From positions 6,536 to 70,535 of the forward strand of contig JAEUHS010000016.1 of the NCBI GenBank assembly GCA_016794035.1: DNA of 64,000 nucleotides, written 5' to 3'. The notes beneath the pieces are model-generated. The model was not told the origin of the DNA. It saw only the letters and a program-made list of their open reading frames with translations, and ran no database searches. The DNA is from Planctomycetota bacterium. Lineage in GTDB: Bacteria; Planctomycetota; UBA1135; UBA2386. Made by a program: the position numbers and the translations under genes. Positions 5,201 to 58,092 of this stretch are shown piece by piece; the stretch's first letter is position 1; each line of letters starts with the position of its first letter.

Positions 5201-8140
5201 TTAGCGCGGTTGCGCCTGCCTTGGCGCAGGAACGTTCGCGGGCGTCGCGCCGGTTGCGTCCTTGCGTACCGGTCCCGCCAGGACCGTGATCGGCGTGGTC
5301 CCGCCGGCGCCGACGACGATCGGCTGGCTGGTGCGCTCGCGGCCGCGCACGTTGACCACCAGCAGGTAGCTGCCCGGCTGGATCGCGTCGAAACGGAACT
5401 CGCCGTTCTGCAGCCGTGCGTCGAACGATGGGTGCTCGCGCTGCCAGGCGGCAAGGTCCTCGGGCAGGGCGTCGAGGCCGGGCAGCAGCGATACACGGCC
5501 GACCAGTTCCTTGACGTCGCCACCGTCGTCGCGGCCGACACTGCCGGCGATGCCGACGGTCTGCAGCGTCAGCTGGCGCTCGGTCGTCGCGTTGGCGATC
5601 ACCTGCACGCTCTCCTCGTGCAGCAGGCCGCCGCGACGCCCGCTCTGGATCCGGAGCCGGTAGGTGCCCGCGGGTACGTCCTCGATGCGGAAGCGGCCCG
5701 ATGCGGCGACAGTCGCCTGCTGGGTGCGGTTGCCCCACATGCCACGGCCACCGGGGCCACCGGGGCCGCCACCGCGCGGGCCGTTGGCGTCGCCGTTGCC
5801 GGTGTCGGCGGTCGCGCCGCTGTCCTCGCGCGTCAATTCGACCTGCAGGCCGGCGCCCGGCGCGCCGTTGTGCAGTACCGAGCCGGCGACCACGCCGACC
5901 TCGGCGCGTTGCACGGCGACGTCCCATCGCGTCTCCTCGCCGCTGCGCACCGCGACGTCGGCCGTCAGCGTGCCGGCGAACAGTTGCGGCCCCAGGGTGC
6001 GCATCAGTTCCTGCGGCGAGCCGATCCAGCTGCGCACCACGTAGTCGCCGGCCTCCAGGCCATCGATGCGGTAGGAGCCGTCGGCCTGGATGGTACCGGT
6101 GCGGAACGGGCCGCCGCCGCCCTGGCCGCGACCGCGGAACATGCCGGGCCCGCCGTCGCCCATGTTCGTCGGCACGGCGGCGATGCGCGCTTCGGCGTGT
6201 TCGCCTTCGGCGAGTCCGCGCACGTGGCCGACGATCGCGCCGAGCGTGCCGAGCCGCAGCATCACGCCGGAACGATCGTTCGCCAGCTCGAACGGCTCGA
6301 TGCTGGCGTCGGCGTAGCCGTCGGCATCGGCCTGCAGGCGGTAGCTGCCGCGCGGCACGTGTTTGAGCACGAACTCGCCGTCGACGTTGGTGGTCACCTC
6401 GATGTTCAGCTGTGCCCCGGCGAACTGCCGCGCGAAGGTGCGGCCGATCGCCTGGAGGTCGGGCGTGCCGCCGTCGGCGGTCGCGTTGCGGCCGGGGCGG
6501 ACCGGGGCCGGCGTGCGCAGCGAGACGTGCGCGTTGGCGATCGGGATGTCGCGCTCGTCGCGCACGATGCCGGCGACGTAGATGCCGCGATCGAGCACGA
6601 TGCGCAGCTCCGGCGCGGCGTTGCCGAGGCGGAGTTCCACCTCCTCGGAGCGGTAGCGCGCGTGCTCGGCCGACTGCACGTGTAGTTCGTAGACGCCTTC
6701 CTGCAGGCCCGGCACCTCGAAGCGGCCCGCGGGGTGTGCTTCGGCCGGGCCGAGGTCGCGCGCACCGCCGCCGCCCTGCCGGCCGCCGCCGCCACCCTGG
6801 CGACCGCCCCCGTCCTGGCGACCGCGCCGTGGGTCGTCGGCGCCGCCGCGGAACTGCTCGATCTGCGCCCGGATCGCCTCACGATCCGTGTCGCTGAGGT
6901 CGCCGCTCCGCATGCGCGCGAACAGTTCGGCGGGGTCCGTCGCTGCCATGCCCGGCACGGGCAGGCCGCGCAGGCGCACGGCGCGCACGGCGAACGCAGA
7001 CACCGGGGCACCGTCTGCGTCGAGCACGGTCCCGGTGATCCGCAGGCCGTCCAGCAGCGTCACCAACAGCGGCTGGCCAAGCCTGGGGTCGACCTGCTCG
7101 ACCTGGTACGGCAGGTAGCCGTCGGCGCGCACGTCGAGCCGCAGCGGCACGCCGGGCAGGTGCTCGAGGAAGAACCGGCCCTGCTCGTCGGTCGTCGCCC
7201 GGTGGTCGCGGCCGCCGGGACCCCGGCCGCCGTCGCGCGCGCCGCGCAGCGTCACGATCGCCTTGGCCACCGGCCGGTTGTCCATGCGGGTCACGATGCC
7301 GGTCACCTCGAAGCCCGGCCCGAGGCGGATGTCGTCGAGTTCGAGGGTCTGCTCGTTCTCGACCGCGAACACCGACGAGCGACCCTCGGTGTGCATCTTC
7401 GCCTCGGCGGCGACCGACCAGTCGCCGGCACTGACGTTCGGGCGGCGGAAGAAGCCGTTGTTGTCGGTCGTCGTGTCGGCCAGCAACTGCTCGCGGTCGC
7501 GCAGGAACCGCATGCGGTTGCCGTTCTCCGGCTGGAGCTTGACGGTTGCGCCGGGGATGCCGTTGCCCTCGAGGTCCGTGACGCGTCCGACCAGTTCGCC
7601 GCCGCGCTCGATCACCAGGTCGCCGAGGTCCACTTCCCCCTCGACGTCGCCGACGTCCTTCTCGAACAGGCCCGGTGCGTGGCCGGCGTGCAGCACCTGC
7701 AAGGAGACCCGCAGCGAGCGGAACGCCTGCCCCTGGAACGCGAAGCGGCCCTGCGGATCGGTCTGCACCGGATCGGGCACGCGCCGCTGCCGGCCGACCT
7801 GGCCACCCCGCGGGCCGCCGCGGCCGAAGTCGAGCCAGACGCTGGCATCGGCCTGGCCGGCGCCGAAGCGATCGACGACCCGGCCGCGCAGCACCACGGC
7901 GACGCGCGATTCGTCGCCGCGCACGATGTCACCGGCGGCGGCTTCCAGTTCGATGCGTTCGACGCCGGCGTCGCCGCCGGGGATCGACTCGGGGGCGGGC
8001 CGTTCCACCTCGACCTCGTCGCGTTCGGACCAACGCATCGGCGGCGTCTGCTCGTCGGCGAAGAACTGCGGCACCATGAGTCCACCGGTGGCGAGCAGGA
8101 TCAGGGCTCCGACCAGCAGAACGAGGCTATGTTTCGGCAT
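5201..8140 (-). CDS. large signal-anchored protein with ~8 tandem carboxypeptidase-regulatory-like (CarboxypepD_reg-type) beta-sandwich domains and Gly/Arg-rich loops
   Basis: N-terminal anchor LVLLVGALILLATGGLMV. Eight repeats follow the pattern G.V.D..G.P...A.V.L ... TD..G.F......G.Y.L.V..G (e.g. LVGRVTDLEGNGIPGATVKL...TTTDNNGFF, VTTNVDGEFVLKHVPRGSYRLQADADGY). Confidence 0.78.
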   Translation of the reverse strand: MPKHSLVLLVGALILLATGGLMVPQFFADEQTPPMRWSERDEVEVERPAPESIPGGDAGVERIELEAAAGDIVRGDESRVAVVLRGRVVDRFGAGQADASVWLDFGRGGPRGGQVGRQRRVPDPVQTDPQGRFAFQGQAFRSLRVSLQVLHAGHAPGLFEKDVGDVEGEVDLGDLVIERGGELVGRVTDLEGNGIPGATVKLQPENGNRMRFLRDREQLLADTTTDNNGFFRRPNVSAGDWSVAAEAKMHTEGRSSVFAVENEQTLELDDIRLGPGFEVTGIVTRMDNRPVAKAIVTLRGARDGGRGPGGRDHRATTDEQGRFFLEHLPGVPLRLDVRADGYLPYQVEQVDPRLGQPLLVTLLDGLRITGTVLDADGAPVSAFAVRAVRLRGLPVPGMAATDPAELFARMRSGDLSDTDREAIRAQIEQFRGGADDPRRGRQDGGGRQGGGGGRQGGGGARDLGPAEAHPAGRFEVPGLQEGVYELHVQSAEHARYRSEEVELRLGNAAPELRIVLDRGIYVAGIVRDERDIPIANAHVSLRTPAPVRPGRNATADGGTPDLQAIGRTFARQFAGAQLNIEVTTNVDGEFVLKHVPRGSYRLQADADGYADASIEPFELANDRSGVMLRLGTLGAIVGHVRGLAEGEHAEARIAAVPTNMGDGGPGMFRGRGQGGGGPFRTGTIQADGSYRIDGLEAGDYVVRSWIGSPQELMRTLGPQLFAGTLTADVAVRSGEETRWDVAVQRAEVGVVAGSVLHNGAPGAGLQVELTREDSGATADTGNGDANGPRGGGPGGPGGRGMWGNRTQQATVAASGRFRIEDVPAGTYRLRIQSGRRGGLLHEESVQVIANATTERQLTLQTVGIAGSVGRDDGGDVKELVGRVSLLPGLDALPEDLAAWQREHPSFDARLQNGEFRFDAIQPGSYLLVVNVRGRERTSQPIVVGAGGTTPITVLAGPVRKDATGATPANVPAPRQAQPR

Positions 8141-8291
8141 GAGCAGGCGTGGGTGGGCGTGGCGCCGCGAAGGGCGCTATTACGGCACGCCCTGGCCGTT
8201 GCCGACAGCAAGTGGCTGTAACGACTTCGCACTCGGCCGCGGCCGGGAGGCGGCGACCGTCGTGCACCGCCGCTGCGAACGACCTCTCGGC

Positions 8292-9596
8292 CTATGGGCC
8301 GAACACCAGCACCTGCGCGGAACTCGACCCGAGGATACCGCTGCTCGACAGCAGCGCCACCTGGGCCGTCGCGGGCACGGGCACCACGAAGCCGGGGTTC
8401 CAGAACGTCACCGACAGCGTGCCGTCGGCGGCGAACGGCGCCGGCTGCAGCAGCGGCGTGTTCGCGAGCACGAGGCGCCAGTGCAGCGGCTGCTCGAACC
8501 CGGCCACCGCGAAGGTACCGTTGCCCGGTGTCGCATCGAGCGCGATGGCCAGCAGGCCCAGCCCGTTGGCCGGGCCGTCGACGACCTGCAGCGTGACGTT
8601 GCCGCTCGGGATCGGCGCCGGCCCGACCGGCGTCAGCTGCGCGCGCCGCGGCGTCACGAAGCGCAGGGTGCTGGTCGCGACGAAATCGGTCTCGAACACC
8701 ACGAGCGTGCCGCCGACCGGCTGGAACGGCTCGAACACGGGCGCGCTGCCACTGGCGAGGAACTGTACCGCCGCGGCGCCCGCTGCGGCGCCGTACGAGA
8801 GCAGCGGCGCCGACCGCCACGGCGCGGGTCCGTCGACGTCGTTCAGTTCGCCGAGCGTGTTCTGGAACCAGTCGGTGAACAGCAGGTCGCCGTCGTCGTC
8901 GAGACAGATGTCGGCTGCGGCGTCGAGTCCCGCGAACACGAGGTCCGCGTCCGCGAGGCCCAGCACGGTGCCCTGTTGCCGCGCCGCGTCGACGACCGGG
9001 CGGCGGAAGCGCAGCACCGAGGTCTGCCCCGGCGGAGTCGGAAACGCCAGGCTGGCGGTCGCGTAGTAGACGTCGCCGTTGTCCGCGACCGCGACCGGTC
9101 CCGACGCGCCCGGCAGCGATGCCAGCTGCTGCACGGCGCCGGTCTGCAGGTCCAGCACCACGAGGTCGTTGTCGGGTGTGCCGAAGCCGCCGGTCTTGGC
9201 CGACACCAGCACATGCTGCGGCCCAAGCCGGGCGGCGTCGTAGTTGTAGACGATGTTCGCCAACGGCTGCGCCGGCGGCGGTCCCTGCAGCGGCACGAGC
9301 CACAGCCGGTTGGTGGTGTTCTCCGCGAACAACAGGTTGCCGGCGCCGACGTCCAGCGTGAACGAGCCGAACACGACCGTCGGCAGGTGCAGCAGGGACA
9401 GCGGTGGCTGGCCGGGTGTCGCGTGCCAGAGGTCGGTGCCGTCGAAGTAGACGAGGTCGCCGGCGGGCAGCGCCAGCGGGCTCGCCGCGGCGGCCGGCAG
9501 CGGCGTCTGTCGACTGTCGAGGCCCTCGGGAACCCGTTGGGCAGCGAGCGCGGGCCAGGTCAGGGCAGCGAGAAGCAGGTGGTTCAGCTCGTTCAT
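8292..9596 (-). CDS. secreted NHL/SMP-30-like beta-propeller protein with C-terminal beta-sandwich module (riboswitch-controlled paralog B)
   Basis: This is the real 3' part of ORF 8292..12188. ATG 9596 opens a signal peptide (MNELNHLLLAALTWPALAAQ). Propeller-strand motifs GPVAVADNGDVYYAT and DICLDDDGDLLFTDW. It lies 5 bp downstream of paralog A. Confidence 0.72.
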   Translation of the reverse strand: MNELNHLLLAALTWPALAAQRVPEGLDSRQTPLPAAAASPLALPAGDLVYFDGTDLWHATPGQPPLSLLHLPTVVFGSFTLDVGAGNLLFAENTTNRLWLVPLQGPPPAQPLANIVYNYDAARLGPQHVLVSAKTGGFGTPDNDLVVLDLQTGAVQQLASLPGASGPVAVADNGDVYYATASLAFPTPPGQTSVLRFRRPVVDAARQQGTVLGLADADLVFAGLDAAADICLDDDGDLLFTDWFQNTLGELNDVDGPAPWRSAPLLSYGAAAGAAAVQFLASGSAPVFEPFQPVGGTLVVFETDFVATSTLRFVTPRRAQLTPVGPAPIPSGNVTLQVVDGPANGLGLLAIALDATPGNGTFAVAGFEQPLHWRLVLANTPLLQPAPFAADGTLSVTFWNPGFVVPVPATAQVALLSSSGILGSSSAQVLVFGP

Positions 9597-9601
9597 GGGG
9601 A

Positions 9602-10975
9602 TCAGGGCAACAGGTCGAGGCGGATCACGGCGGCGCTGCCGACGTCGCCGGCGCCGAGGGCGTCCATCGCGACGACCTGCAGGTCGACGCGGCCCGGCGC
9701 GGAACCGGGATTCCACAGGGCGAAGTTCGCCGCACCGGCGGCGTCGAGCGCCGTGTCGGCGACCAGGAACGTGGTCGCCAGCGGCAGCGCCAGCCACAGC
9801 GGCGTGCCGTTCACGGTCGCGACGAGGGTCTCCGGGCCGCTGCCGGGCAGGCTCGCGAACGCGAACCCGAGGCCCAGCGGAGGCGCGCCGGTGACGTCGA
9901 CGGAGAACGGGCCGACGGGGACGCGGGTGCCGGTCGGCACGGTTGCGTGCGGGCGTGCCGACCGCAGTTGCCGCCACTCGTAGCGGGTGGCGAAGTCGCT
10001 GGTGCCGACGCCGAGCGCCGGGGCCGCGTCGGCGGGTTGGAAGCCGCGGAACGGCGCGCTGCCGTGCGGCTGGTAGTGCAGCGTCAGGGCGAATCGTCCC
10101 GGGCCGACGTCGAGGGTGGTGCCGACCGGCGACAGCCCGCCCGGCGCCGTGTGCACGACGACGCTGCTCGTCGGATCGGTGGCATGCAACCGCCCCTGGT
10201 CGTCGACGGCCAGATCGAACAGGCCGGTGTAGCCGGTGCCGATCGCGGTGACGTCGGCCATGGACAGGGTCGCGCCGGCGAGCGCCGCCGACACGCGGTT
10301 GGCGGGAATCTGCAGCAGGCGGATGGCGCCCGGGGGCGGCGGCACCGTCGGTCCCAGTTCGCCGACGACGAGATCGCCGTTCGCTCGTACGGCCAGCGGT
10401 GCCGACGGGCCGACGAGCGCCAGCACTTCCCGCGGGAGTCGACCCGGGCCGACCAGCCAGACTCCGCTGTGGGCGCCGGCCTGTGGCCACATGGGGTTGG
10501 CCGTCACCAGCAGGTCGGCGCCGAGCGCCGCCGCGTCGAAGGCGTTCGGTACGCCGGCGAACGTGCCGACGTGGCCGGCGACCGGATCGACCAGCAGCAC
10601 CTTGCCGCTGCGCAAGGCGCCGACCGCACACCGCCCGCCCGCGACGGGCACCAGGAAGGCGATGTCGTCGTTGCTGCCGAGGTCGAGCAACGGCCGCATC
10701 GTGGCCACCCGTTGCGCACCGGTCCGGAACAGCTGCTGCCGCACGGCCACGAGGTGCTCCTTCGCGTTCAGCACCAGGGCGCTGCGCACGAGCAGCGGTT
10801 GCGCCGTCTCGACGAACGATGTCGCGCAGCTCCAGCCGGGCGGCACGGTCGCCGCCTGCGCCGCCAGCGTCGCGCCGAAGCCGACGGCGGCCAGCGCGCG
10901 GCCGAGGCGCGCGAGCCGACGCGGTGCCACGGCGGGGGCGCCGGCACGCAGGTTCGGCGACCTGATGGCTGTCAT
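9602..10975 (-). CDS. secreted NHL/SMP-30-like beta-propeller protein with C-terminal beta-sandwich module (riboswitch-controlled paralog A)
   Basis: ORF 9602..11098 trimmed to ATG 10975, with SD GAGGTGG just upstream. Signal peptide MTAIRSPNLRAGAPAVAPRRLARLGRALAAVGFGATLAAQA. Motifs LFDLAVDDQGRLHATD and ANGDLVVGELG. The C-terminus parallels paralog B (FALWNPG vs TFWNPG). Confidence 0.72.
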   Translation of the reverse strand: MTAIRSPNLRAGAPAVAPRRLARLGRALAAVGFGATLAAQAATVPPGWSCATSFVETAQPLLVRSALVLNAKEHLVAVRQQLFRTGAQRVATMRPLLDLGSNDDIAFLVPVAGGRCAVGALRSGKVLLVDPVAGHVGTFAGVPNAFDAAALGADLLVTANPMWPQAGAHSGVWLVGPGRLPREVLALVGPSAPLAVRANGDLVVGELGPTVPPPPGAIRLLQIPANRVSAALAGATLSMADVTAIGTGYTGLFDLAVDDQGRLHATDPTSSVVVHTAPGGLSPVGTTLDVGPGRFALTLHYQPHGSAPFRGFQPADAAPALGVGTSDFATRYEWRQLRSARPHATVPTGTRVPVGPFSVDVTGAPPLGLGFAFASLPGSGPETLVATVNGTPLWLALPLATTFLVADTALDAAGAANFALWNPGSAPGRVDLQVVAMDALGAGDVGSAAVIRLDLLP

Positions 10976-11034
10976 GATCCACCTCGGCGTCTTGCGCGCC
11001 GCGAATGGGAACCGGAAGCGACGGCCATGTGGCC

Positions 11035-11185
11035 GTTCCTCGCGGATGTTCTGGCTCCCGGATCGGCCTACTGACCCGCCTTCCCAGGTCGCCGACACGG
11101 CGATCCCAGTGGCACTTGGGCGTTCGTTCCCGGTGACAGCTGCGGGACAGCGCCGGAATCACACCGGCTTCCCCGCGAGGAACCG
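11035..11185 (-). promoter_or_regulatory. cobalamin (B12) riboswitch aptamer, 5' leader of the 10975 gene
   Basis: Minus-strand read: cGGTTCCTCGCGGGGAAGCCGGTGTGATTCCGGCGCTGTCCCGCAGCTGTCACCGGGAACGAACGCCCAAGTGCCACTGGGATCGCCGTGTCGGCGACCTGGGAAGGCGGGTCAGTAGGCCGATCCGGGAGCCAGAACATCCGCGAGGAACgg. It carries the conserved core GGGAA.CCGGTG.GA.TCCGG..C.G.CCCGC..CTGT, plus GCCACTG, GGGAAGGC and a B12-box-like GAGCCAGAAC. A perfect 10-bp P1 helix (GTTCCTCGCG/CGCGAGGAAC) closes it. The aptamer ends 59 nt before the ATG. Not verified with a covariance model. Confidence 0.8.
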
Positions 11186-11186
11186 C

Positions 11187-11214
11187 AGGGTATCCGGACC
11201 GGCTCCATGCACAA
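11187..11214 (-). promoter_or_regulatory. candidate sigma-70-type promoter of the riboswitch transcript
   Basis: -35 TTGTGC (11214-11209), a 16-nt spacer, and -10 TACCCT (11192-11187). The predicted TSS falls at the 5' edge of P1. This is a pattern match only. Confidence 0.25.
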
Positions 11215-11321
11215 GGGAAAGTGCGCCGCCGGCCGGCGCGGGACTTGCCTGATGGCCGCCGCGGCACGAGAAACCACGGTTGCCGCCGACCCTCGTCCCT
11301 GCGGTCGTGTCCAACCAGCCC

Positions 11322-12092
11322 ATGTTGTCCCTCCTGGCCGAAGTGCGGCGTCGCGCCGGCGACGCCGGCCTGAACCTGCTCGGCCTGGTGGATGCGGAAC
11401 GATTCGACGCCGCCCAGACCCGGGAGCGCCGCGTGCGGTCGATCGCGCCCGACTGCGGCACGGTGCTCGTCGTCGGCAGCGGCGGCCGCGAGCTGTGGCA
11501 GCGGTTCGAACGGCGCAGCGGGGCATCGTGCCGCAGCGCGGCGAGGGTCGACCGCTACGCATCGGCAGCGGCGCGGCAGATCGAGACGCTGTTGCGTTCG
11601 TCGGCGATCCGCTGCCGCACGATCGCCGGCCCGTGTGACTCGCGGCTGCCGTTCACGCAGCTCGGCGAGGCGGCGGGCCTCGGCACGGTGTCGCCGGTGA
11701 CGGGGCTCCTCCTGCACCCGCAGTTCGGACCCTGGGTGCGGATCCGCGCGGTCGTGCTGGCCGACGGCAGGCCGTTCGGGCCGATCGCCGATGCGTCGAT
11801 CAGCGAGCGATTCCAGCCGTGCTGCGGCTGCAGCCGCCCGTGCGTCACGGCGTGTCCGGTCGGCGTGCACGACGGCCTCGGCGGCCAGGACTTCGGTCGC
11901 TGCGCGAGCCACCGGCACGCGGGCAACTGCGAAACGCACTGCAGCAGTCGCAGCGCCTGCCCCGTGGGCAGCAGCCACCGCGACGCCGACGGCGAACATG
12001 CGCACCGCCATGCGCATTCGTTGAGCGCCCTGCGTCGGCACTTCGGACTCGGCGTCTGGCGTTGGCTGCCGAATTCCTGGCGCCGGCCATGA
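11322..12092 (+). CDS. Fe-S protein resembling the catalytic core of epoxyqueuosine reductase QueG / reductive-dehalogenase superfamily (short form)
   Basis: ORF 11280..12092 trimmed to ATG 11322. Motif LGTVSPVTGLLLHPQFGPWVRIRAVVLADG is followed by Cys clusters PCCGCSRPCVTACP and CASHRHAGNCETHCSSRSACP. Confidence 0.6.
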   Translation: MLSLLAEVRRRAGDAGLNLLGLVDAERFDAAQTRERRVRSIAPDCGTVLVVGSGGRELWQRFERRSGASCRSAARVDRYASAAARQIETLLRSSAIRCRTIAGPCDSRLPFTQLGEAAGLGTVSPVTGLLLHPQFGPWVRIRAVVLADGRPFGPIADASISERFQPCCGCSRPCVTACPVGVHDGLGGQDFGRCASHRHAGNCETHCSSRSACPVGSSHRDADGEHAHRHAHSLSALRRHFGLGVWRWLPNSWRRP

Positions 12093-12096
12093 TCGC

Positions 12097-12885
12097 ATGA
12101 GGTCGCCGGCGCGCATCGTCAGCCTCGTGCCGAGTACGACCGAGAGCCTCTGTGCACTTGGTGCGGGCGCCGCGCTGGTCGGGTGCACGCGCTACTGCGA
12201 GGAACCGGCCGGCGAACTCGCGGCCGTGCGCCGTGTGGGCGGGACCAAGAACCCCCAGCGCGAGGCGATCCTGGCCCTGCACCCCGACCTCGTGCTGGCC
12301 AACGCCGAGGAGAACCGGGCCGAGGATCTCGAGTGGCTGCAGGCCCGGGTGCGCGTCGTCGTCCACACACCTCGTACCGTCGGCGAGGCCGCTGCGTGCC
12401 TGCGCGACCTCGCGGCCGAGTTGGCCGTGCCAGAGGCCGTGCAGCCGTTCCTGCTCCGCATCGAATCGCAGCTCGCCGCCGCGCAGGTCGCGTTGCTCGA
12501 AGCGCCGGCGATCGACGTCTTCTACCCCGTGTGGTGCAGGCCGTGGATCAGCATCAACGGCGACACGTTCGTCCACGACGTGCTGCGTGTGGTCGGTCTG
12601 CGCAACATCGCCGCCGACCTGCCGCGCCGCTATCCGGAAGTCGAACTGGAATGGGTGCGTTCGCGGCGTCCCGGTGCGGTGCTGTTGCCGAGCGAGCCAT
12701 GGGCGTTCACCGCGAGCGATCGCGATGTCTGCCGCGGCGAGCGCACGTTCGGTCCGGCTGCCGTCGAGTTGTGCGACGGCCGCGACTTCTGCTGGCACGG
12801 GGTGCGGCTGGCCGACGGACTCGGGCGAGCGCTGCGCCTCGCCGCGCGATTGCGTCGCGCGGCCGGCCGGCGCCATCGATCGTGA
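12097..12885 (+). CDS. BtuF/TroA-like (Peripla_BP_2) cobalamin/metal-chelate binding protein without signal peptide
   Basis: MRSPARIVSLVPSTTESLCALGAGAALVGCTRYC...VGGTKNPQREAILALHPDLVLA matches the typical BtuF-family N-lobe. No hydrophobic leader. Starts 4 bp after the previous gene. Confidence 0.7.
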   Translation: MRSPARIVSLVPSTTESLCALGAGAALVGCTRYCEEPAGELAAVRRVGGTKNPQREAILALHPDLVLANAEENRAEDLEWLQARVRVVVHTPRTVGEAAACLRDLAAELAVPEAVQPFLLRIESQLAAAQVALLEAPAIDVFYPVWCRPWISINGDTFVHDVLRVVGLRNIAADLPRRYPEVELEWVRSRRPGAVLLPSEPWAFTASDRDVCRGERTFGPAAVELCDGRDFCWHGVRLADGLGRALRLAARLRRAAGRRHRS

Positions 12886-12891
12886 CGGTGC

Positions 12892-12919
12892 GCGGGCGCG
12901 GCCGCGAGCGAGCGCCCGT
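12892..12919. terminator. GC-rich hairpin between convergent genes (possible bidirectional terminator)
   Basis: GCGGGCGC (12892-12899) pairs with GCGCCCGT (12912-12919) across a 12-nt loop. No U-tract. Confidence 0.25.
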
Positions 12920-13275
12920 CAGCGTGCGGCTTCGACCCGCCGCTTCGTCAGGTCGATCACCGGAGCGGTGTCGCTGATCGCGCGGATGCGGGCGAGCAAC
13001 GCGTGCGCCGCGGCCTCGTCGGCGACGCGTGCGCTGCGGGCCAGCAGCGAACCGTCGACCTCCTTGGCGACGACCCAGTGCGAGCCATCGGCTTCGGTCT
13101 GTGGGCTGCTGCGCTCCGGGTCGCGCAGGGCGCTGCGCACGTGCAGGACGCCGGTCTGGGCGCCGATCTTGCCGTTGCATCCGACGCTGCGCAGCAGGAC
13201 GTCGCCGTCCGGGCCCCGCAGCTGGAAGTGGAACTTGCCGGCGTCGTCGAGAACCAGTTCGAATCGTGTTGCCAT
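12919..13275 (-). CDS. YegP/DUF1508 (UPF0339) family protein, two repeats
   Basis: This is the real 3' part of ORF 12919..14430. ATG 13275 has GGAGGAG 8 nt upstream. MATRFELVLDDAGKFHFQLRGPDGDVLLRSVGCNGKIGAQTGVLHVRSA, then a second repeat HWVVAKEVDGSLLARSARVADEAAAHALLARI. Confidence 0.8.
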   Translation of the reverse strand: MATRFELVLDDAGKFHFQLRGPDGDVLLRSVGCNGKIGAQTGVLHVRSALRDPERSSPQTEADGSHWVVAKEVDGSLLARSARVADEAAAHALLARIRAISDTAPVIDLTKRRVEAAR

Positions 13276-13427
13276 TGTCTTGCTCCTCCACTGAGCCAGA
13301 CGTTCGCGCCGGACCGGATGTTCCAATGGGACACCTATTTCCCGCCGGCGGGGCGGGCACAACGCCCGATCCTGGTCGGGGCGGGCGCCGGTCGCCGGCT
13401 GCTCGAAGCGCGTCGGGCCGCGGGTGC

Positions 13428-22403: not shown

Positions 22404-25331
22404 TCAGCGCGGCGACGGGCGCACGCCGTACGGCGCCAGCTCGCGCGCGAGCGCGTCGGTCCAGCGTTCGAACTGGACGGCGCCGGCGGCGTCGAGGTGT
22501 GCGTCGAGCGCGCGGCACGCCGCATCCCAGCAGGCGATCGCATACGACTGCGCCGGCACCTGGGCGCCGTCGAGCGCGGCCACATCGCAGAACGACAGCA
22601 GATTCCGGCGCCACCGGTCCTGCCAGGCAGCGAGATCGAAGCTGCCGGCTGCCGCCGGTTCCAGGGCCGTCGTGCGCAGCAGGTCGGCAGCCGGTCGCAG
22701 CGTCGTCGGCAGTTCGGCGGCGCGCCCGACCAGCGCCGCCGCGAAGCCGCCGCGCGCGGCGGCGGCGGCGTTCGGGTTCCACCAGGACTGGACGAGCAAC
22801 GGCAGGCCGATCGCGAGCAGCATGGCGCCGGTCGCGACGGTCCAGCGCCGACGCCGGCGGCGGACCGCGGCAGCGCGTTCCTGCAGCACTCGCTCGCCGG
22901 CCTGCTGGCACTGCGCCGCGAGCTTGCGCCAGTGCTCCAGCAATCGCAGCAGGCGTCCGGGGGCTTCGGTCTCGTGGCCGGACGCGGCCACCGCCGCCGC
23001 GACCTCGTCGATCGTCGCGCGGATGATCCGTGCCCGGGCTGGCAGCTCCGAGGTGCCGTCGAGCTGCTGCTCGGCCATCGCGGCGTGTTCGAGCGTGATC
23101 TGCGTCTCGACGTCGCGCAGGTCCTTGGTGTAGAGCATCGCGCGGTCGGCGGCGACGTTCATCGTCAGCAGGTGCAGGCAGTCGCGCCGCTCGGTCAGCG
23201 CCTGCAGCCGATCGGCGAACGACGACGACGGGTCGTCCTGCAGCGAGCCGTAGCGCGTCGTCAGCTCGACGTTGCGGCGCACGGCGGCGTCGACCTCGAG
23301 CCGGCGGCGCCTGGCGTCCGCGAGGCGGGCCTGCAGGCGCGCGGCTTCGGCACGGTCGTGTTCGTCGAGCGGGTTGAGTTCGGCGACCGCACGTTCCATG
23401 TCGAACAGCCCGGTCGTCCAGTGGCCGCGCGCCAGCGCGCTCTCGGCGCCCTCCGCGAGCCGGTCGCGCGTCGCCCGCGCCTGGTCGAGGCGCAGCCGCA
23501 GCGATTCGATCGCGTCCTGCAGCTGACTGCGCGGCTGCTCGGGCCGGTCGACGAACGCCTCGAGGATGCGGAACGTGTCCAGCCGCGCGAGCGCGGCCTG
23601 CAGCGGGCGCACCGGCACCGGCACGGAGCGCAGCAGCGCCTCCGCCTCGTCGCGCGCCTGCCAGGCCCGATCGGTCAGGTCGAACAGCGCCTGGCTCAGC
23701 GCCTCGTACGCCGGCGTCACCGGCGGCAGGTGGGGGAACTCCTCGCTGAGGTTGACCAGCGTGATCTGCAGGCTGCGCAGGCCGACGACGCCGGTCGAGG
23801 ACTCGTGGCGCGAACGGCCCTGCACGGCGTCGACGGCGGCGGCCACGAAGCTGGTCAGCGGCGCCAGCGCCACCGCATCCCAGAGGGTCGCCACGCGCTC
23901 GACGTTCGGTTGCGCCCGGGCGACGCGTTCGAGGTAGAAGCCGAGCCGATGCAGCTGGTCGCGCTGCCGCGTCGCCGTCGGCGACACGCCGCCGTGGCGC
24001 GCCGCCATCGCCTCGATCGCCTGTTCGGTGCCAGCGAGGTCGAGCCGGCTCTCGGCGCCGAGGATGGCCTGCGTCTGCTGCGCCAGTTCCTCGCGCGCCG
24101 CGCCGAGCTGGCGTTCGAGCTGCTGCAGGTAGCCGATCGGATCGCGGTGCAGGCGCGTCGCGGCGGCGGGGGGCACGCTCGGGATCGCGCAGCCGCCGGG
24201 CAGCTGCAGGCAGTCGTGTGCGAGCCGTCGGGCGTCGTCGAGCCATTCGGCCGCGGCGGCGAACTCCTCCGACCGCCGCAGGGTGTCGATGTGGGCCGCG
24301 GCGTCGGCGAGCAGACGCCCCGCGGTCTGGCAGAGCGTGCGGCGCCACTGCAGCGTCTCGCGGTGGCGCGGGAAGCGCTGCAGCACGCGCGCGGCGGTCG
24401 CCAGTTCGCGGCGCAGGGCCGCCGGCTCGGTCGGCAGCGCGCGCGGGATCGTCAGCAGCTGCGGCAGCCGACGCAGCCGGCCCCGGCTGTGTCGCACCCA
24501 TGCCGCCAGCGCCGGGCGCATCGCCGCGAACGTCGGCGGTTGCAGGACGCCGCGCGCGGCCGCGTCGAGCACCGCCTCTTCGGCGTCGCCGTCGAGGCGC
24601 GTCGCCAGTTCGTGCAGCGCCGCCGCGGCCGCGCCCGCGGTCGGTCGCCGCTGCGGGTCCGGATCGAGCAGGCGTTCGAGCAGCGCGACCACGGCCGCGG
24701 GTTGCGGCAGGGCCGTGCTGCCGCCGCCGCTCAGCAGCCAGCGCCACGTCGCGCCGAGACCGAACACGTCGCCCGCCGCGCTCGGCGGTTCGTCGGCATG
24801 GAACTCGCTCGGCATGGCGCGCGGCGGCGAGCCGTCGGCGCCGTTGGTCGGCGAAGGAATCGGGGCCGCATGCTCGAAGTCGAGCAGCAGCGTGGTCGCC
24901 TGCGTCGCCAGCAGGTTCTTCGGCCGGACATCGCCGTGGCAGATGCCCGCCGGCGCCGTGGCGGTGCGGATCGCATGCAGCCGCGCGAGGGTCTCGGCCA
25001 CCGGCGCCAGCAGGCGGCACGCCAGCGCGGCCGGCAGCGCACCCTGCTCGCCGACCAGGCGGTCGAGGTCGGTGCCCTCGACGAACGTCGTCGTCAGGCA
25101 CGGCCGCTGCGTGGTCGGGTCGAGCGCGCAGTCGAGGTAGGCCACGACGCCGGGACCGGCGCCGCACCGTCCCATCGCCAGCTCCCGTTCGGCGTCGGCG
25201 AGCGAGCCCGACACGACCAACTTGCGGACCACGCGTTCGCCGCGGACCGGGTCCGTCGTGACGAACACGGTCCGGTGCGGCGAAGCGTGCAGCAGCCGGT
25301 CGGCGGCCGCAGAAGCGGCGGAGCGGGTCAT
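22404..25331 (-). CDS. atypical protein-kinase-like domain protein with ~650-aa helical region and a C-proximal TM helix
   Basis: This is the real 3' part of ORF 22404..27359, starting at ATG 25331. Kinase elements VVRKL (beta3 Lys), AERELAMG (alphaC Glu), CHGDVRPKNLL (catalytic loop) and LLDFEHA (DFE in place of DFG). No GxGxxG loop. TM helix WTVATGAMLLAIGLPLLVQSWW. Confidence 0.7.
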   Translation of the reverse strand: MTRSAASAAADRLLHASPHRTVFVTTDPVRGERVVRKLVVSGSLADAERELAMGRCGAGPGVVAYLDCALDPTTQRPCLTTTFVEGTDLDRLVGEQGALPAALACRLLAPVAETLARLHAIRTATAPAGICHGDVRPKNLLATQATTLLLDFEHAAPIPSPTNGADGSPPRAMPSEFHADEPPSAAGDVFGLGATWRWLLSGGGSTALPQPAAVVALLERLLDPDPQRRPTAGAAAAALHELATRLDGDAEEAVLDAAARGVLQPPTFAAMRPALAAWVRHSRGRLRRLPQLLTIPRALPTEPAALRRELATAARVLQRFPRHRETLQWRRTLCQTAGRLLADAAAHIDTLRRSEEFAAAAEWLDDARRLAHDCLQLPGGCAIPSVPPAAATRLHRDPIGYLQQLERQLGAAREELAQQTQAILGAESRLDLAGTEQAIEAMAARHGGVSPTATRQRDQLHRLGFYLERVARAQPNVERVATLWDAVALAPLTSFVAAAVDAVQGRSRHESSTGVVGLRSLQITLVNLSEEFPHLPPVTPAYEALSQALFDLTDRAWQARDEAEALLRSVPVPVRPLQAALARLDTFRILEAFVDRPEQPRSQLQDAIESLRLRLDQARATRDRLAEGAESALARGHWTTGLFDMERAVAELNPLDEHDRAEAARLQARLADARRRRLEVDAAVRRNVELTTRYGSLQDDPSSSFADRLQALTERRDCLHLLTMNVAADRAMLYTKDLRDVETQITLEHAAMAEQQLDGTSELPARARIIRATIDEVAAAVAASGHETEAPGRLLRLLEHWRKLAAQCQQAGERVLQERAAAVRRRRRRWTVATGAMLLAIGLPLLVQSWWNPNAAAAARGGFAAALVGRAAELPTTLRPAADLLRTTALEPAAAGSFDLAAWQDRWRRNLLSFCDVAALDGAQVPAQSYAIACWDAACRALDAHLDAAGAVQFERWTDALARELAPYGVRPSPR

Positions 25332-25526
25332 GGAGGCAAGGGCGCCGGCGCGCACCGCGGGTGCGGTGACGAGCCGTCGACAGCAGGGGTGGATCCGCGT
25401 CGGCAAGCCGAGGTGGTGGCGGACCACGCCAAGTGTAGCAGCGCGTCGGGCCCCGGGCAGGCCGTTCGTCGACGGGAATCCGACACCCCACTGCCCAGGC
25501 TGGCCGGCATCGGCGACAATCCGACG

Positions 25527-27377
<1,851 letters not shown>

Positions 27378-49047: not shown

Positions 49048-50397
49048 TCAGAGTCCGAGCGTGGTCACGACCGCGTTCGAGACGGTGGCGCCGGCCGGGT
49101 TGACGCCCGGATCGAGACACAGCGCCTGCGCGTAGATGCGATCGCCGACGGTGCCGATGGTCGGGTTGTAGGTGAACGACGCCATGCCACCGGCGCTGGT
49201 GACGTTGACGAACGCGTCGGGGAAGGCGTAGCCGGCGCAGCCCGGCAGGCCGACGAAGTCGAGCGCGAGGCCCGGCAACGCGGACAGGCCCAGCACGAAT
49301 GCCACGGCCTGCGGCGCGGTGTTCAGGTCGGTGAGCACCAGCCGGTAGTCGCCGCCGATGCGACCGGCGTCGGGCATGCTCAGCGCCGGCACGCCGTTCG
49401 AACCGGGGCAGCCGACACCGTAGGCACGCCAGCGGGCGCCGAACTCCCAGGTCTGGTTGGAGAGCGTGTTCGGACTCTGCGTGAAGCCGCCGAACTTCAC
49501 CACCTGTCGCCGCGTCGGCAGGAATGCGAGCGAATGGTCGCGCGCCGGCTGCGTCGCCGTCGGCTGCTGCGTCCACGCGGTGCCGTCGAACTCCCACGTG
49601 TCGGCGAAGATCGTGGTCGCATCCTGACCGCCGGTCAGCACGCAGACGCCGCGCAGGTCGTCGTAGACCATCTTCGCGGCGTTGCGCGGCGACGGCCTGG
49701 CGCCGGCGATCGGCACCGGGGTCCAGTTGACGCCGTCGTAGGTCCAGGTCGCGTCGAACAGCGTGCTGCTGAACGCGCCGCCGAACAGCACCGTCTTGCC
49801 GAGCGCCGCGTGGTAGCACATCGCCGGCCGGTCCAGCGCGCCGGGGTTCGCCGCGGTCGTGATCTGCACCCAGTTGACGCCGTCGTACTCCCAGGTCTTG
49901 TTCGACGGGATGCCGACGCCGGCGCCGACGCCGCCGTAGACGACGACGCGCGCGCGGCCGATGTCGTAGCAGATGCCGTTGCGGAACAGACCGCCGGGGT
50001 TCGTGGCGGGCGTTCGCAGGCTCCAGTCGACGCCGTCGAACTCCCAGGTCTCGCTGCTGGCGCCGCCGGCGGAGCCGCCGTAGAGCACGACCACGCCGCG
50101 CAGCAGGTCGTAGGTCATCTCGACCTCGATGCGGCCGCTCGGCGACGTCGCCGGGGCGAGCTGCGTCCAGTCGACGCCGTCGTAGACCCAGGTCTCGTTG
50201 CTCGGCGCCGGGTTGCCGGTGCCGCCGAACAGCAGCGCGCCGCCGACGCCGGGCGCGAACGTCATCGCCGCGCCGCGCCGCGCCGTCGGCGAGGTCGCGG
50301 GGGACTGTTGTTCCCATTGCGTGCGCGCCAGCAGCGGGGCCGCCGGGGCGGCGACCGAGACGGAGAGCAGGAACAGGGTGGTTGCGGTTCGAGGCAT
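49048..50397 (-). CDS. secreted Kelch-repeat beta-propeller protein with unassigned Cys-containing C-terminal module (paralog 1)
   Basis: ORF 49048..50508 trimmed to ATG 50397, with signal peptide MPRTATTLFLLSVSVAAPAAPLLA. Six blades with the recurring pattern hhhFGG...(E/D)TWE(F/Y)DG..W. The C-terminal 124 aa contain GCPGSNGVPAL, GLPGCAGYAF and QALCLDPGVNPAG. Confidence 0.85.
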   Translation of the reverse strand: MPRTATTLFLLSVSVAAPAAPLLARTQWEQQSPATSPTARRGAAMTFAPGVGGALLFGGTGNPAPSNETWVYDGVDWTQLAPATSPSGRIEVEMTYDLLRGVVVLYGGSAGGASSETWEFDGVDWSLRTPATNPGGLFRNGICYDIGRARVVVYGGVGAGVGIPSNKTWEYDGVNWVQITTAANPGALDRPAMCYHAALGKTVLFGGAFSSTLFDATWTYDGVNWTPVPIAGARPSPRNAAKMVYDDLRGVCVLTGGQDATTIFADTWEFDGTAWTQQPTATQPARDHSLAFLPTRRQVVKFGGFTQSPNTLSNQTWEFGARWRAYGVGCPGSNGVPALSMPDAGRIGGDYRLVLTDLNTAPQAVAFVLGLSALPGLALDFVGLPGCAGYAFPDAFVNVTSAGGMASFTYNPTIGTVGDRIYAQALCLDPGVNPAGATVSNAVVTTLGL

Positions 50398-50636
50398 CGG
50401 CGTCGGGTCGGCTGTGGGCACGATGCCACAGGCGACATTGGCGCGCGATCGGCCGGCGGAATCCGCGGAAACGGGCCGGCCCGTCGCCGTTGCGTTTCGT
50501 GGTTGCACTCCGTCCGTGAGGACCCGGATCCCGAGGCATGGAACGTCGTTGCGACCCAGCCTCTCGCCGCTGAGCTGCGGCGCGCAGCGCCGTCAGCTCC
50601 AGCATGGGCGGGCGTAGCCGCCACCCCGCACGTTCC

Positions 50637-52028: not shown

Positions 52029-52058
52029 GGGTCTTCGAGTCTGCGGGGTGATACGAAA

Positions 52059-52090
52059 CGGAGAGTGAGCCACCGGGCGCTCACTCTCCG
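52059..52090 (-). terminator. perfect 12-bp hairpin followed by UUU, 47 nt after the Kelch-3 stop and 30 nt before the Kelch-2 ATG
   Basis: Minus strand reads CGGAGAGTGAGC-gcccggtg-GCTCACTCTCCG-ttt. It could be an intrinsic terminator or a processing/attenuation site. Confidence 0.4.
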
Positions 52091-57469: not shown

Positions 57470-58092
57470 GCTGGATCTCGCGGTTCGTGGGCGTCGGCGC
57501 CGAGGCGCCGCTGCAGCTCGCGGCGGTAGTCGCGCATGCCGCGCACCAGCCGGTCCTTGAACGTCGACAGCGGCAGTCCGAGGCGTTCGGCCGAGTCCTT
57601 CAGCGGCACCTCCTCGAACACGCGCAGGCGCACGACGTCGCGCAGCGGCTCGTCGAGCGCGGCGAGCGCGTGCTCGAGCACCCGGGCGCGTTCGAGATGG
57701 GACGCGGTGCGGCTCGGCGTCGTCGACTGCGGCGGCAGGTAGCCGTCGACCGTGTCGGCGCCCCCGAGGTCCGAGAAGCGCGCCAGCGGCCGGCTGCCGC
57801 CGCGCTTGGTGCGCAGCACGCCGCGCACCGCGGCCCGCACCCGGTTGTGGGCGATGCCGAGCAGCCATGCACGGTACTTGCTCAGGCTGCTCCACTCGTG
57901 CTGCTGGCGATCGCGCCACGCCATCCACAGCGTCTCCTGCCAGATGTCCTCGACCGAGATCTCGAGCCGCACCTCGGCGCCGATCCAGCTGCCGATCACG
58001 ACGAAGATCGTCGCCGCGTCGAGGCTGTCGACGAGGCGACACCAGGTCGTCGGGTCGAGGTGGGGTGCCGGGGACTCGGGAGCGGGCCGCAT
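57466..58092 (-). CDS. ECF-type RNA polymerase sigma factor (sigma-70 regions 2 and 4)
   Basis: ORF 57466..58158 trimmed to ATG 58092. Region 2: VEDIWQETLWMAWRDRQQ. Region 4: LRDVVRLRVFEEVPLKDSAERLGLPLSTFKDRLVRGMRDYR. No anti-sigma gene follows; a kinase does. Confidence 0.85.
   Translation of the reverse strand: MRPAPESPAPHLDPTTWCRLVDSLDAATIFVVIGSWIGAEVRLEISVEDIWQETLWMAWRDRQQHEWSSLSKYRAWLLGIAHNRVRAAVRGVLRTKRGGSRPLARFSDLGGADTVDGYLPPQSTTPSRTASHLERARVLEHALAALDEPLRDVVRLRVFEEVPLKDSAERLGLPLSTFKDRLVRGMRDYRRELQRRLGADAHEPRDPA

Follow-up and report, generated by a model that had tools for sequence, protein, structure and literature searches.

In the 64-kb window, that is the whole stretch of DNA analysed from an uncultured planctomycete, we found a member of a widespread, unnamed protein family in which a CblC-type cobalamin module appears to be wired to an iron-sulfur relay of the QueG/RdhA kind. 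This protein (protein 1) is encoded directly upstream of a BtuF-like binding protein (protein 2), and the gene pair stands back to back with a cobalamin riboswitch. Profile searches, hhalign comparisons and AlphaFold/Foldseek agree in placing protein 1 in the QueG / reductive dehalogenase / CblC superfamily. It is plausible, though short of probable, that protein 1 processes and reduces corrinoids in the cytoplasm, driven by its Fe-S clusters and with protein 2 as the carrier.

The features of the locus are collected in Table 1. The initial annotation had described a plus-strand pair with a 4-bp spacer, back to back with a riboswitch, and this layout was confirmed. Both open reading frames were recovered, with the stop codon of protein 1 (TGA) at 12090-12092 and the ATG of protein 2 at 12097. 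The riboswitch was detected on the minus strand well above the gathering score of RF00174 (82.3 bits against 31.5, E 9.6e-19), and its 5' end lies about 100 bp from the start of protein 1. In orthologous loci RF00174 scored 52.8-97.6 bits, and the genes for proteins 1 and 2 overlap by 4 bp or stand 20 bp apart. The same back-to-back layout was seen in 45 related loci; there, the nhmmer riboswitch match precedes the protein 1 homologue by 80-404 nt, in most cases by 80-215 nt. A sigma-70 scan of the divergent region revealed no promoter-like site, but is uninformative at 73% GC.

Table 1. Features of the locus, with positions in the window.
Feature	Position	Strand	Basis or remark
Protein 1 gene	11322-12092	+	ORF, 256 aa
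Spacer TCGC, operon junction of proteins 1 and 2	12093-12096	+	Sequence, 4 bp
Protein 2 gene	12097-12885	+	ORF, 262 aa; BtuF-like (class III, TroA-like) binding protein without signal peptide
Cobalamin riboswitch aptamer	11033-11221	-	Rfam RF00174
Divergent control region, serving both the riboswitch operon and the operon of proteins 1 and 2	11222-11321	.	ORF and Rfam coordinates
Protein 1 cobalamin-module signature EAAGLGTVSPVTGLLLHPQFGPWVRIRAVVL	11667-11759	+	Residues 116-146; H132-P133-x-F-G136-x-W138-x3-R142
Protein 1 first Cys motif, C167-x2-C170-x3-C174-x3-C178-P	11820-11858	+	All four Cys invariant in the broad family
Protein 1 second Cys motif, C194-x8-C203-x3-C207-x5-C213-P	11901-11963	+	Broad-family alignment; conserved R198 and R210
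Protein 2 motif C30-T-R-Y33-C34, cleft-facing N-lobe loop	12184-12198	+	C34 invariant; C30 and Y33 at least 90%
Protein 2 motif L-C226-D-G-R-D-F-C232-W-H-G, C-lobe	12769-12801	+	C232, W233, H234 and G235 invariant; C226 at least 90%
First gene of the riboswitch operon	9602-10975	-	ORF; secreted protein, paralogue of the next gene; context only
Second gene of the riboswitch operon	8292-9596	-	Secreted beta-propeller with Ig-like domain; context only
979-aa protein with five CarboxypepD_reg repeats	5201-8140	-	Pfam PF13620, 1.7e-65, five stretches; downstream, same direction; context

The ATG of protein 1 at 11322 fits the N-termini of 78 homologues, and an upstream TTG at 11280 does not. From residue 3 onwards the N-terminus (MLSLLAEVRRRAG) aligns with the core fold, and the C-terminus extends about 40 residues past the last Cys. 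No Pfam or NCBIfam family could be assigned to the protein. It belongs to a family of ~250-aa proteins that comprises 707 clusters (50% identity, E≤1e-10). Literature searches on short or QueG-like proteins, on Fe-S CblC in bacteria, on BtuF in the cytoplasm and on riboswitch-linked B12 uptake in planctomycetes turned up no description of this family. Conservation was read from a close alignment of 78 sequences (A1) and from a broad family of 90 members at 25-60% identity.

A profile of the family was compared with the PDB and matched QueG (5d08, E 2.2e-5) and NpRdhA (5e-3). With hhalign, probabilities of 97.6% for B. subtilis QueG and 96.1% for MMACHC were obtained. The AF2 model of protein 1 (pLDDT 94.7) was used for a Foldseek search, which returned QueG at 1e-8 (TMq 0.60), MMACHC at 6e-7, NpRdhA at 3e-5 and PceA at 1.5e-4; MMACHC superposed on the model with an rmsd of ~4 Å over 191 columns. 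Of 66 structural neighbours with E ≤ 0.001, the best 50 all belong to the B12-binding branch (QueG, MMACHC, RdhA). These HMM and structure searches corroborate the resemblance to the QueG/RdhA core that had been noticed from the letters and place protein 1 inside that superfamily.

The cobalamin-module signature is strongly conserved. In A1, H132, P133, G136 and W138 are kept in 94-100% and R142 in 86% of the sequences. G136 and W138 do not vary in the broad family, where H132, P133 and R142 each reach at least 90%; written as H-P-x-[FY]-G-x-W-x3-R, the signature is nearly invariant in the 90 members. It aligns to IHPRFGGWFAIR161 of MMACHC, and QueG has TTPEYGSYVYLAE at this place. Thus the QueG-like stretch of the initial annotation is present and conserved, but its signature is of the CblC rather than the QueG type. 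G128 was paired by hhalign with Gly147 of MMACHC, and R142 with Arg161. Conservation amounts to 77-80% for G128, 86-97% for R142, 94-100% for W138 and 100% for G136. R198 aligns with MMACHC Arg206, though where the hhalign alignment is of low confidence, and Arg230 is unmatched. In MMACHC, Gly147 binds Cbl, and Arg161, Arg206 and Arg230 form an arginine triad for glutathione binding (PMC11910325).

The two Cys clusters that had also been noted are present and conserved in the 78-sequence family. The first aligns to the first ferredoxin motif of QueG (CGSCTKCLDACP), and C194 of the second aligns to the Cys of the QueG RCIS motif. In the broad family C203, C207 and C213 are invariant, and C194 and R210 are each conserved in 98%. 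The eight conserved Cys are sufficient for two [4Fe-4S] clusters. In addition, D24, D29, R37, C45 and E116 are invariant and clade-specific. The median pI of the family is ~7.1, and the proteins are therefore not uniformly basic.

QueG (PDB 5d08, 5t8y, 5d6s) is the top match of protein 1 by sequence, profile and fold, and in both a base-off cobalamin module at the N-terminus precedes a ferredoxin module of the two-[4Fe-4S] type. Nevertheless, protein 1 is not a canonical QueG. It scores 11.7 bits (E 0.094) against NCBIfam TIGR00276, with a cut-off of 200, and the loop from C194 to the last three Cys has 8 residues instead of ~26. As the first reading had it, the C-terminal extension of QueG is lacking. 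This HEAT-like domain binds tRNA in QueG (PMC5175355); protein 1 is ~120-180 aa shorter, and both the alignments and the tblastn matches of BsQueG end at or before QueG residue 284. The D-Y-H motif, Asp134 and Arg141 (B. subtilis numbering) fall into variable or gapped columns of the family and Gln220 is not conserved, although all of these are functionally important in QueG (PMC5175355, PMC4646009). The score below the cut-off, the missing domain and the missing catalytic residues together rule out a canonical QueG.

With CblC/MMACHC (PDB 3sc0, 3som), a decyanase and dealkylase of cobalamin, protein 1 shares the cobalamin-binding fold, the H-P-x-F-G-x-W-x3-R signature and the size of ~250 aa. 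In contrast to protein 1 with its two-cluster insert, CblC has no Fe-S clusters and receives electrons from flavin or glutathione. The Pfam family PF16690 (MMACHC) did not match protein 1 of the window. Distant family members reached 13-17.5 bits, below the cut-off of 27, and had no matches to QueG-family Pfam models. CblC/MMACHC has been described as conserved in eukaryotes, with an evolutionary origin that is little known (PMC11910325). The likeness to RdhA (PceA 4uqu/4ur0; NpRdhA 4ras) consists of the cobalamin module combined with a two-[4Fe-4S] redox chain. However, protein 1 lacks the Tat signal and RdhB anchor gene of respiratory RdhAs as well as the fused reductase domain of the NpRdhA type, and it has neither an extra domain nor N- or C-terminal extensions. 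QueG and the RdhAs have in common one conserved Tyr above the corrin, which acts together with an Arg as the RdhA proton donor (PMC4646009). No conserved counterpart of this Tyr/Arg pair was seen in protein 1, where the region is variable and gapped. A reductive dehalogenase was rejected on the missing dehalogenase Pfam match, Tat signal, anchor gene and conserved Tyr.

Protein 2 matched Pfam Peripla_BP_2 (PF01497; E 9.3e-17, 61.6 bits against a cut-off of 27.5) and NCBIfam NF038402, the TroA-like 'helical backbone metal receptor' (171.5 bits against 30). The latter alignment covers residues 6-235 on model positions 1-218 of 219. Hence the BtuF/TroA likeness of the initial annotation holds, but it is not restricted to an N-lobe, and protein 2 is a complete two-lobed protein. 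Against the BtuF equivalog NF002894 it scores 63.6 bits, below the cut-off of 234. When the family profile was compared with the PDB, BtuF was found at 4e-22 to 1e-16, and the best iron and heme binders at 1.6e-14 and 5e-14. BtuF (PDB 1n2z, 5ysc) is thus the closest solved relative, and protein 2 groups with it over heme and siderophore binders. A heme or siderophore binder is less likely, as the BtuF matches are better by 2-8 orders of magnitude.

Protein 2 cannot hide a signal peptide, since 12097 is the first start codon past the upstream in-frame stop. It begins at the position where mature BtuF begins. No signal peptide was seen in 42 orthologues, and among about 45 there is one possible exception (P0318). 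The orthologues start 4-12 residues before RIVSLVPS, and the few longer N-termini are polar, again except possibly P0318. The missing export signal, as originally described, was thereby confirmed. In contrast to BtuF, which is exported to the periplasm as part of BtuCD-F, protein 2 has no btuCD genes nearby. The docking of BtuF to BtuC involves Glu72 and Glu202, and in the protein 2 family these columns are conserved in 69% and 29%, respectively. Of Pro31, Tyr50, Trp66, Trp85 and Trp196, which we take to be the B12-contacting residues of BtuF, protein 2 keeps Pro31, Tyr50 (Y33) and, as a Tyr, Trp196. Thr stands in place of Trp66 and Asn in place of Trp85, and both replacements are invariant in the family. 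Four conserved Cys of the protein 2 family lie in the cleft loops, those of the C-lobe at the end of the NF038402 match. BtuM, a bacterial membrane protein, ligates base-off B12 through a Cys and strips off the cyanide (PMC6072759). Its fold is unrelated to that of protein 2, and the likeness, a conserved Cys in the presumed ligand cleft, is an analogy only.

Synteny was counted in 65 related loci with enough sequence on either side. A riboswitch was present in 44 of them. In 29 of the 65 a BtuF-like gene lies directly downstream of the protein 1 homologue; 5 loci have a BtuF-like gene without a riboswitch, and 16 have neither. The pair thus accompanies B12 elements in related loci, in line with the B12-themed locus first proposed. 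In some loci (L040, L045, L050, L054, L061 and L071) the riboswitch operon is convergent and lies downstream, still adjoining the protein 1 homologue, and in L009 a riboswitch is found on both sides of it. Close relatives keep the entire neighbourhood from MutS through FolC. Part of the adjacency is therefore inherited gene order and not functional linkage.

The protein 1 family reaches well beyond the planctomycete clade, and no B12 context was found outside it. Neither a riboswitch nor a BtuF-like gene was detected by nhmmer and tblastn in 80 soil-metagenome loci, and Rfam found no riboswitch in the 11 longest. Likewise, loci of Thermodesulfobacteriota and Bdellovibrionota showed no B12-related or BtuF-like neighbours. 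Some distant members lie among translation genes (fmt/fusA, hisS, der), others next to SCP2-like, SBP56 or Fer2 genes, and several family members are labelled QueG by JGI. Two observations are anecdotal: a [2Fe-2S] ferredoxin gene stands ahead of one distant member, and the sole domain fusion found, which may be a read-through, joins another to a PF02310 B12-binding domain.

For the locus in the window we propose the following course, which is drawn from homology. Protein 1 would represent an undescribed family and act in the cytoplasm as a redox protein that binds corrinoid, joining a base-off cobalamin module of the nitroreductase-like CblC/QueG/RdhA type to a two-[4Fe-4S] relay, without the tRNA-binding domain or the catalytic residues of QueG. 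In the planctomycete clade it would be co-translated with protein 2, which may hold corrinoid arriving in the cytoplasm and pass it on to protein 1. Low-potential electrons from ferredoxin would then travel through the two clusters to the cobalt. Reduction of the cobalt would release the upper ligand (cyanide, alkyl or water) and give cob(II)/cob(I)alamin for adenosylation or for enzyme loading. In animals this task falls to CblC, which relies on flavin or glutathione; in protein 1, Fe-S clusters would take their place. Several findings stand against such processing. Distant family members have no B12 context, and only one or two of the CblC triad arginines align, Arg230 not among them. Protein 2 has replaced Trp66 and Trp85 and carries four conserved Cys. 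In the 64-kb window we detected no cobalamin-dependent enzyme, adenosyltransferase or inner-membrane B12 transporter, no FecCD, btuCD or ABC transporter genes, and no further B12 or queuosine genes.

To our knowledge, the cytoplasmic chemistry of imported cobalamins in bacteria, that is the removal of cyanide or alkyl groups and the reduction before adenosylation, is poorly known. The protein 1 family would either close this gap or amount to a fourth functional branch of the class III B12 enzymes. As a bolder and more tentative proposal, the family could be the missing bacterial counterpart of CblC, with ferredoxin-fed reduction through two [4Fe-4S] clusters and removal of the upper ligand. 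Its partner would be a cytoplasmic chaperone derived from BtuF, whose cleft Cys might ligate cobalt, and the locus including its riboswitch-controlled, secreted beta-propellers would be a new route of B12 acquisition and processing.

Alternatively, protein 1 could be a class III B12/Fe-S reductase that holds cobalamin as a fixed cofactor and acts on some unspecified small-molecule substrate, as RdhA acts on organohalides, with protein 2 serving as its cytoplasmic B12 chaperone and loading the cofactor. The location near the B12-uptake operon would then follow from the enzyme's need for B12. We regard this as possible but doubtful. The redox-chain architecture is that of QueG and RdhA, D24, D29, R37, C45 and E116 could make a substrate site, and the broad family occurs in varied non-B12 contexts; moreover, active sites of class III enzymes differ greatly between substrates (PMC4646009). 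However, the Tyr above the corrin has no conserved counterpart, the cobalamin-module signature is that of CblC, and no candidate substrate-pathway genes were co-conserved among the loci compared. It is quite unlikely that protein 1 is instead a minimal version of epoxyqueuosine reductase, in effect a short QueG able to act on tRNA although it lacks the HEAT domain. QueG as best sequence and fold match, the JGI labels and the translation-gene neighbours of some distant members point that way. Against it stand the TIGR00276 score, the absence of a HEAT-like domain with BsQueG tblastn matches that never pass residue 284, the loss of D-Y-H, Asp134, Arg141 and Gln220, and a family pI that is not uniformly basic.

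Two further readings do without B12. In one, the pair has no functional link to B12, its position reflects gene order inherited within a single order-level clade, and the ligand of protein 2 is a different one: a metal, heme or, through its four Cys, an Fe-S cluster. This would account for the neighbourhood shared by close relatives, the 16 of 65 loci with neither riboswitch nor protein 2 gene, the distant members without B12 context, and the absent Trp66 and Trp85 together with the four-Cys set in the cleft loops. Yet the link between protein 1 and the riboswitch operon outlasts both the switch from divergent to convergent arrangement and changed downstream genes, two riboswitches flank the gene in L009, and the nearest characterised relative of each protein is, independently, a B12-binding protein. 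We consider a missing B12 link unlikely. In the other, protein 1 is an Fe-S, possibly flavin, oxidoreductase that keeps only the nitroreductase-like fold and binds no B12. The fold superfamily is indeed ancestrally flavin-binding. This reading is very unlikely in view of the best 50 of the 66 structural neighbours, all from the B12-binding branch, and of the conserved motif, which is shared with MMACHC and contains counterparts of Gly147 and Arg161.

For corrinoid processing by protein 1, the planctomycete locus offers a concrete context, in which a riboswitch, B12-controlled secreted proteins and a BtuF-like partner that lacks a signal peptide occur together. The probable ATG of the first riboswitch-operon gene is at 10975, 58 nt past the aptamer. 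Tblastn with either riboswitch-operon protein matched the same regions in related loci, and the two genes are therefore paralogous; neither protein had a Pfam match. The AF2 model of the second protein (pLDDT 94.4) was matched by Foldseek to YVTN and SMP-30-type propellers (best 1l0q, 3e-8). The CarboxypepD_reg protein encoded downstream was found in 54 of 80 related loci.

The gene for the 256-aa Fe-S protein (protein 1) and that for the 262-aa BtuF-like protein (protein 2) lie back to back with a cobalamin riboswitch, which was the single RNA found by an Rfam scan of the 64 kb window (GC content 73%). The coordinates, the 4-bp spacer and the two motifs quoted in the initial annotation agree with the open reading frames and the sequence. 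The NCBI entry "hypothetical protein JNM25_02540" is 100% identical to protein 1. Across the window and related loci, the pair either shares a 4-bp overlap or is separated by 4-20 bp, which fits co-translation. The position of the DUF1508 gene, convergent with protein 2, is kept in 24 related loci; no connection of this gene to B12 is obvious.

Features of the locus and of the surrounding window
Feature	Position	Strand	Remark
Secreted paralogue 2 (ORF2)	8292-9596	-	riboswitch operon; no Pfam match
Secreted paralogue 1	9602-10975	-	riboswitch operon; no Pfam match
Cobalamin riboswitch	11033-11221	-	Rfam, 82.3 bits, E 9.6e-19
Protein 1 gene	ATG 11322, TGA 12090-12092	+	starts ~100 bp upstream of riboswitch
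Spacer TCGC	between protein 1 stop and protein 2 start	+	4 bp
Protein 2 gene	ATG 12097 to 12885	+	ORF
Protein 2 C30 and C34	12184-12198	+	flank Tyr50 equivalent
Protein 2 C226 and C232	12769-12801	+	in LCDGRDFCWHG; family conservation
Small DUF1508 (YegP-like) gene	12919-13338	-
Ser/Thr protein kinase-domain protein	22404-27359	-	1651 aa
Two adjoining Kelch-repeat propeller proteins	49048-52073
Ser/Thr protein kinase-domain protein	53594-58042	-	1482 aa; also FG-GAP repeats

Protein 1 matched no Pfam family, and its sole NCBIfam match was QueG TIGR00276, at 11.7 bits where the cut-off is 200. Searched alone against PDB sequences, it gave weak matches to QueG (0.019), PceA (0.22) and MMACHC/CblC (0.25), with LGTVSPVTGLLLHPQFGPWVRIRAVVL and the first Cys motif at the centre of each. 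A profile of 78 close homologues reached QueG at 2.2e-5 and NpRdhA at 5e-3. By hhalign, a broad alignment of 90 members (24-60% identity to the window protein) matched B. subtilis QueG residues 5-218 (probability 97.6%, E 4.5e-12) and human MMACHC residues 7-231 (probability 96.1%, E 2.9e-9). In the two reference sequences, the segments of QueG match those in the PDB alignments, and the MMACHC numbering reproduces the published Gln131, Gly147, Arg161, Arg206 and Arg230. An AlphaFold2 model built on the 78-sequence alignment (pLDDT 94.7, pTM 0.91) was compared with the PDB by Foldseek. Matches included QueG (1.2e-8, TMq 0.60), MMACHC (6e-7, rmsd ~4 Å over 191 columns), NpRdhA (3e-5) and PceA (1.5e-4), and the best 50 of 66 matches at E ≤ 0.001 all fall in that branch of the nitroreductase-like superfamily which binds B12. 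Thus the proposed placement in the QueG/RdhA superfamily stands. The family of protein 1, within the wider QueG/RdhA/CblC superfamily, is undescribed.

Across the broad alignment G136, W138 and seven Cys are invariant, and conservation reaches 90% or more at C194, H132, P133, R142, R210, G16, G55, L114, G119 and G216. The planctomycete subfamily has invariant residues of its own (D24, D29, R37, C45, E116, S124-P125). Eight Cys form two motifs, C167-x2-C170-x3-C174-x3-C178-P and C194-x8-C203-x3-C207-x5-C213-P, which align with the ferredoxin motifs of QueG and are sufficient for two [4Fe-4S] clusters. The signature H-P-x-[FY]-G-x-W-x3-R matches IHPRFGGWFAIR161 of MMACHC, whereas QueG has TTPEYGSYVYLAE at this position. 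R142 is the counterpart of MMACHC Arg161 and G128 that of Gly147, which binds Cbl; in hhalign R198 also falls on Arg206, though support for that stretch is weak (residue roles from PMC11910325). Distant family members gave sub-threshold Pfam matches to MMACHC PF16690 and Fer4_16, and never a QueG-family match. The HEAT-like domain, D-Y-H, Asp134, Arg141 and Gln220 of the tRNA enzyme QueG (PMC5175355, PMC4646009) are missing or fall at variable columns, so the lack of the QueG C-terminal extension noted initially was correct. The single Tyr above the corrin that is common to QueG and RdhAs has no conserved counterpart in the family alignment. Protein 1 is therefore a bare class III B12/Fe-S core with a CblC-like cobalamin module. 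It probably binds a corrinoid, in the base-off state, next to two [4Fe-4S] clusters. Assignment as a QueG or an RdhA was rejected, since the defining features of both are lacking. In architecture this is the class III core already known; what is new is an unnamed, uncharacterised family that joins CblC-type and QueG-type features.

When 1.84 billion representative proteins were searched exhaustively with HMMER, the family comprised 1694 clusters at E≤1e-3, of which 707 reached ≤1e-10 and 88 reached ≤1e-30. Among the 150 best matches almost every protein is 230-290 aa long. Members are named "hypothetical" or, in JGI, "epoxyqueuosine reductase", and a literature search found no description of the family. 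One distant member from this search (P0262, 366 aa) runs on into a B12-binding domain, PF02310, of radical-SAM type (34.9 bits, cut-off 32.1), either as a true fusion or by read-through into an adjoining gene.

Protein 2 matched Pfam Peripla_BP_2 (9.3e-17) and, over its full length, NCBIfam NF038402 "helical backbone metal receptor" (171.5 bits); it scored 63.6 bits with the BtuF equivalog, against a cut-off of 234. A profile of 42 orthologues matched BtuF of V. cholerae (4e-22) and E. coli (~5e-17) better than it matched an iron-binding protein (1.6e-14) or ShuT, which binds heme (5e-14); this upholds the BtuF-type assignment. The window sequence holds no upstream in-frame start codon. Orthologues begin 4-12 residues ahead of the conserved RIVSLVPSTTES motif, and longer N-termini are few and, apart from the hydrophobic one of P0318, polar. 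The absence of an export signal was thus read correctly and is a trait of the family. Protein 2 is BtuF-like without a signal peptide, and not a BtuF orthologue. For comparison protein 2 was aligned to E. coli BtuF and its B12-contact residues, with self-consistent numbering. In this alignment Pro31, Tyr50 and Trp196 (as Tyr) are retained, Trp66 and Trp85 are replaced by Thr and Asn, both invariant in the family, and the BtuC-docking Glu202 is not conserved. The loops expected to line the cleft are the most conserved parts of the family and contain four conserved Cys, C30, C34, C226 and C232, which might bind cobalt or another metal or might form an Fe-S site. Corrinoid binding by protein 2 is plausible.

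A one-genome-per-species scan gave 149 relatives, from which 80 loci were fetched, nearly all from Planctomycetota MAGs. By nhmmer, 53/80 contain the riboswitch; Rfam confirmed it in 6/7 sampled loci and found it in 0/7 nhmmer-negative ones. In the 65 loci with enough flanking sequence on both sides, 24 combine the riboswitch with an adjoining protein 2 gene, 20 have the riboswitch alone, 5 have the protein 2 gene alone and 16 lack both. Both became rarer as the protein 1 homologue diverged: the riboswitch was present in 17/19 loci at ≥50% identity, 23/29 at 40-50%, 4/14 at 30-40% and 0/3 at <30%, and the adjoining protein 2 gene in 16/19, 12/29, 1/14 and 0/3, respectively.

The surroundings of distant members (26-34% identity) have no B12 elements. 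The homologue is flanked by scpB and der in Thermodesulfobacteriota, lies between fmt and fusA or near hisS elsewhere, and has no B12-related neighbours in Bdellovibrionota. In 80 soil-metagenome loci of another branch, no riboswitch (nhmmer) and no protein 2 homologue (tblastn) were detected; on the 11 longest, an Rfam scan for riboswitches was negative as well. Linkage to B12 is thus confined to the planctomycete subfamily. The commonest neighbour in this high-GC soil branch (L092-L171) is a divergent gene of the SCP2 sterol-transfer family (28 loci; ~105 aa, PF02036, 2e-26); another recurrent one appears to resemble the DUF72 protein next to P0170. In one distant lineage (L087), a 112-aa [2Fe-2S] ferredoxin gene (5602-5940, +) and a gene for SBP56, of the selenium-binding/methanethiol oxidase family, directly precede the homologue P0260, of which the ferredoxin could be the electron donor.

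The neighbourhood as a whole (MutS, aminotransferase, CMD, NUDIX, esterase, FolC) is common to close relatives, and part of the adjacency is therefore simply inherited gene order. That inheritance without function explains all of it is unlikely. In six loci (L040, L045, L050, L054, L061, L071) the riboswitch operon is convergent downstream instead of divergent upstream and still adjoins the protein 1 homologue, with differing downstream genes. In locus L009, from a related MAG, a second cobalamin riboswitch (10810-10974, +, 85.8 bits) directly follows the homologue, at the site of the window's BtuF-like gene, and five loci without a riboswitch keep the pair. These arrangements speak for a genuine linkage. 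Synteny of the pair with B12 elements is seen in related planctomycete loci, and both genes are linked to the B12 riboswitch operon in this clade.

As to function, we tentatively favour a role in which protein 1 would reduce incoming corrinoid and strip its upper ligand, as CblC does, with protein 2 serving as its corrinoid carrier. The main rival, less probable, is a reductase with a fixed cofactor acting on some other substrate. A mini-QueG is unlikely, and least likely of all is that protein 1 binds no B12. It is for its proposed functional link to B12 processing, which can be tested, that the family is of interest.

The two paralogous secreted proteins always accompany the riboswitch in related loci. 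The ORF2 model (pLDDT 94.4) is a six-bladed beta-propeller with an Ig-like domain, best matched in Foldseek by YVTN and SMP-30 propellers. The operon further encodes a small anchored protein and a protein of 979 aa that carries five CarboxypepD_reg repeats. No membrane transporter, B12-dependent enzyme, adenosyltransferase or queuosine gene was found in the 64-kb window. By loose analogy with the BtuG-type propellers of Bacteroides, the operon (5201-11221, -), which has no recognisable transporter, may be an undescribed corrinoid-scavenging system. Downstream of the second riboswitch of L009 lies a gene for a 342-aa secreted protein without a Pfam match (10991-12019, +); L085 and L086 have genes of comparable size and position. 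The two very large kinase-domain proteins and the Kelch-repeat proteins of the window look like typical planctomycete content, unrelated to the protein 1 and protein 2 finding.
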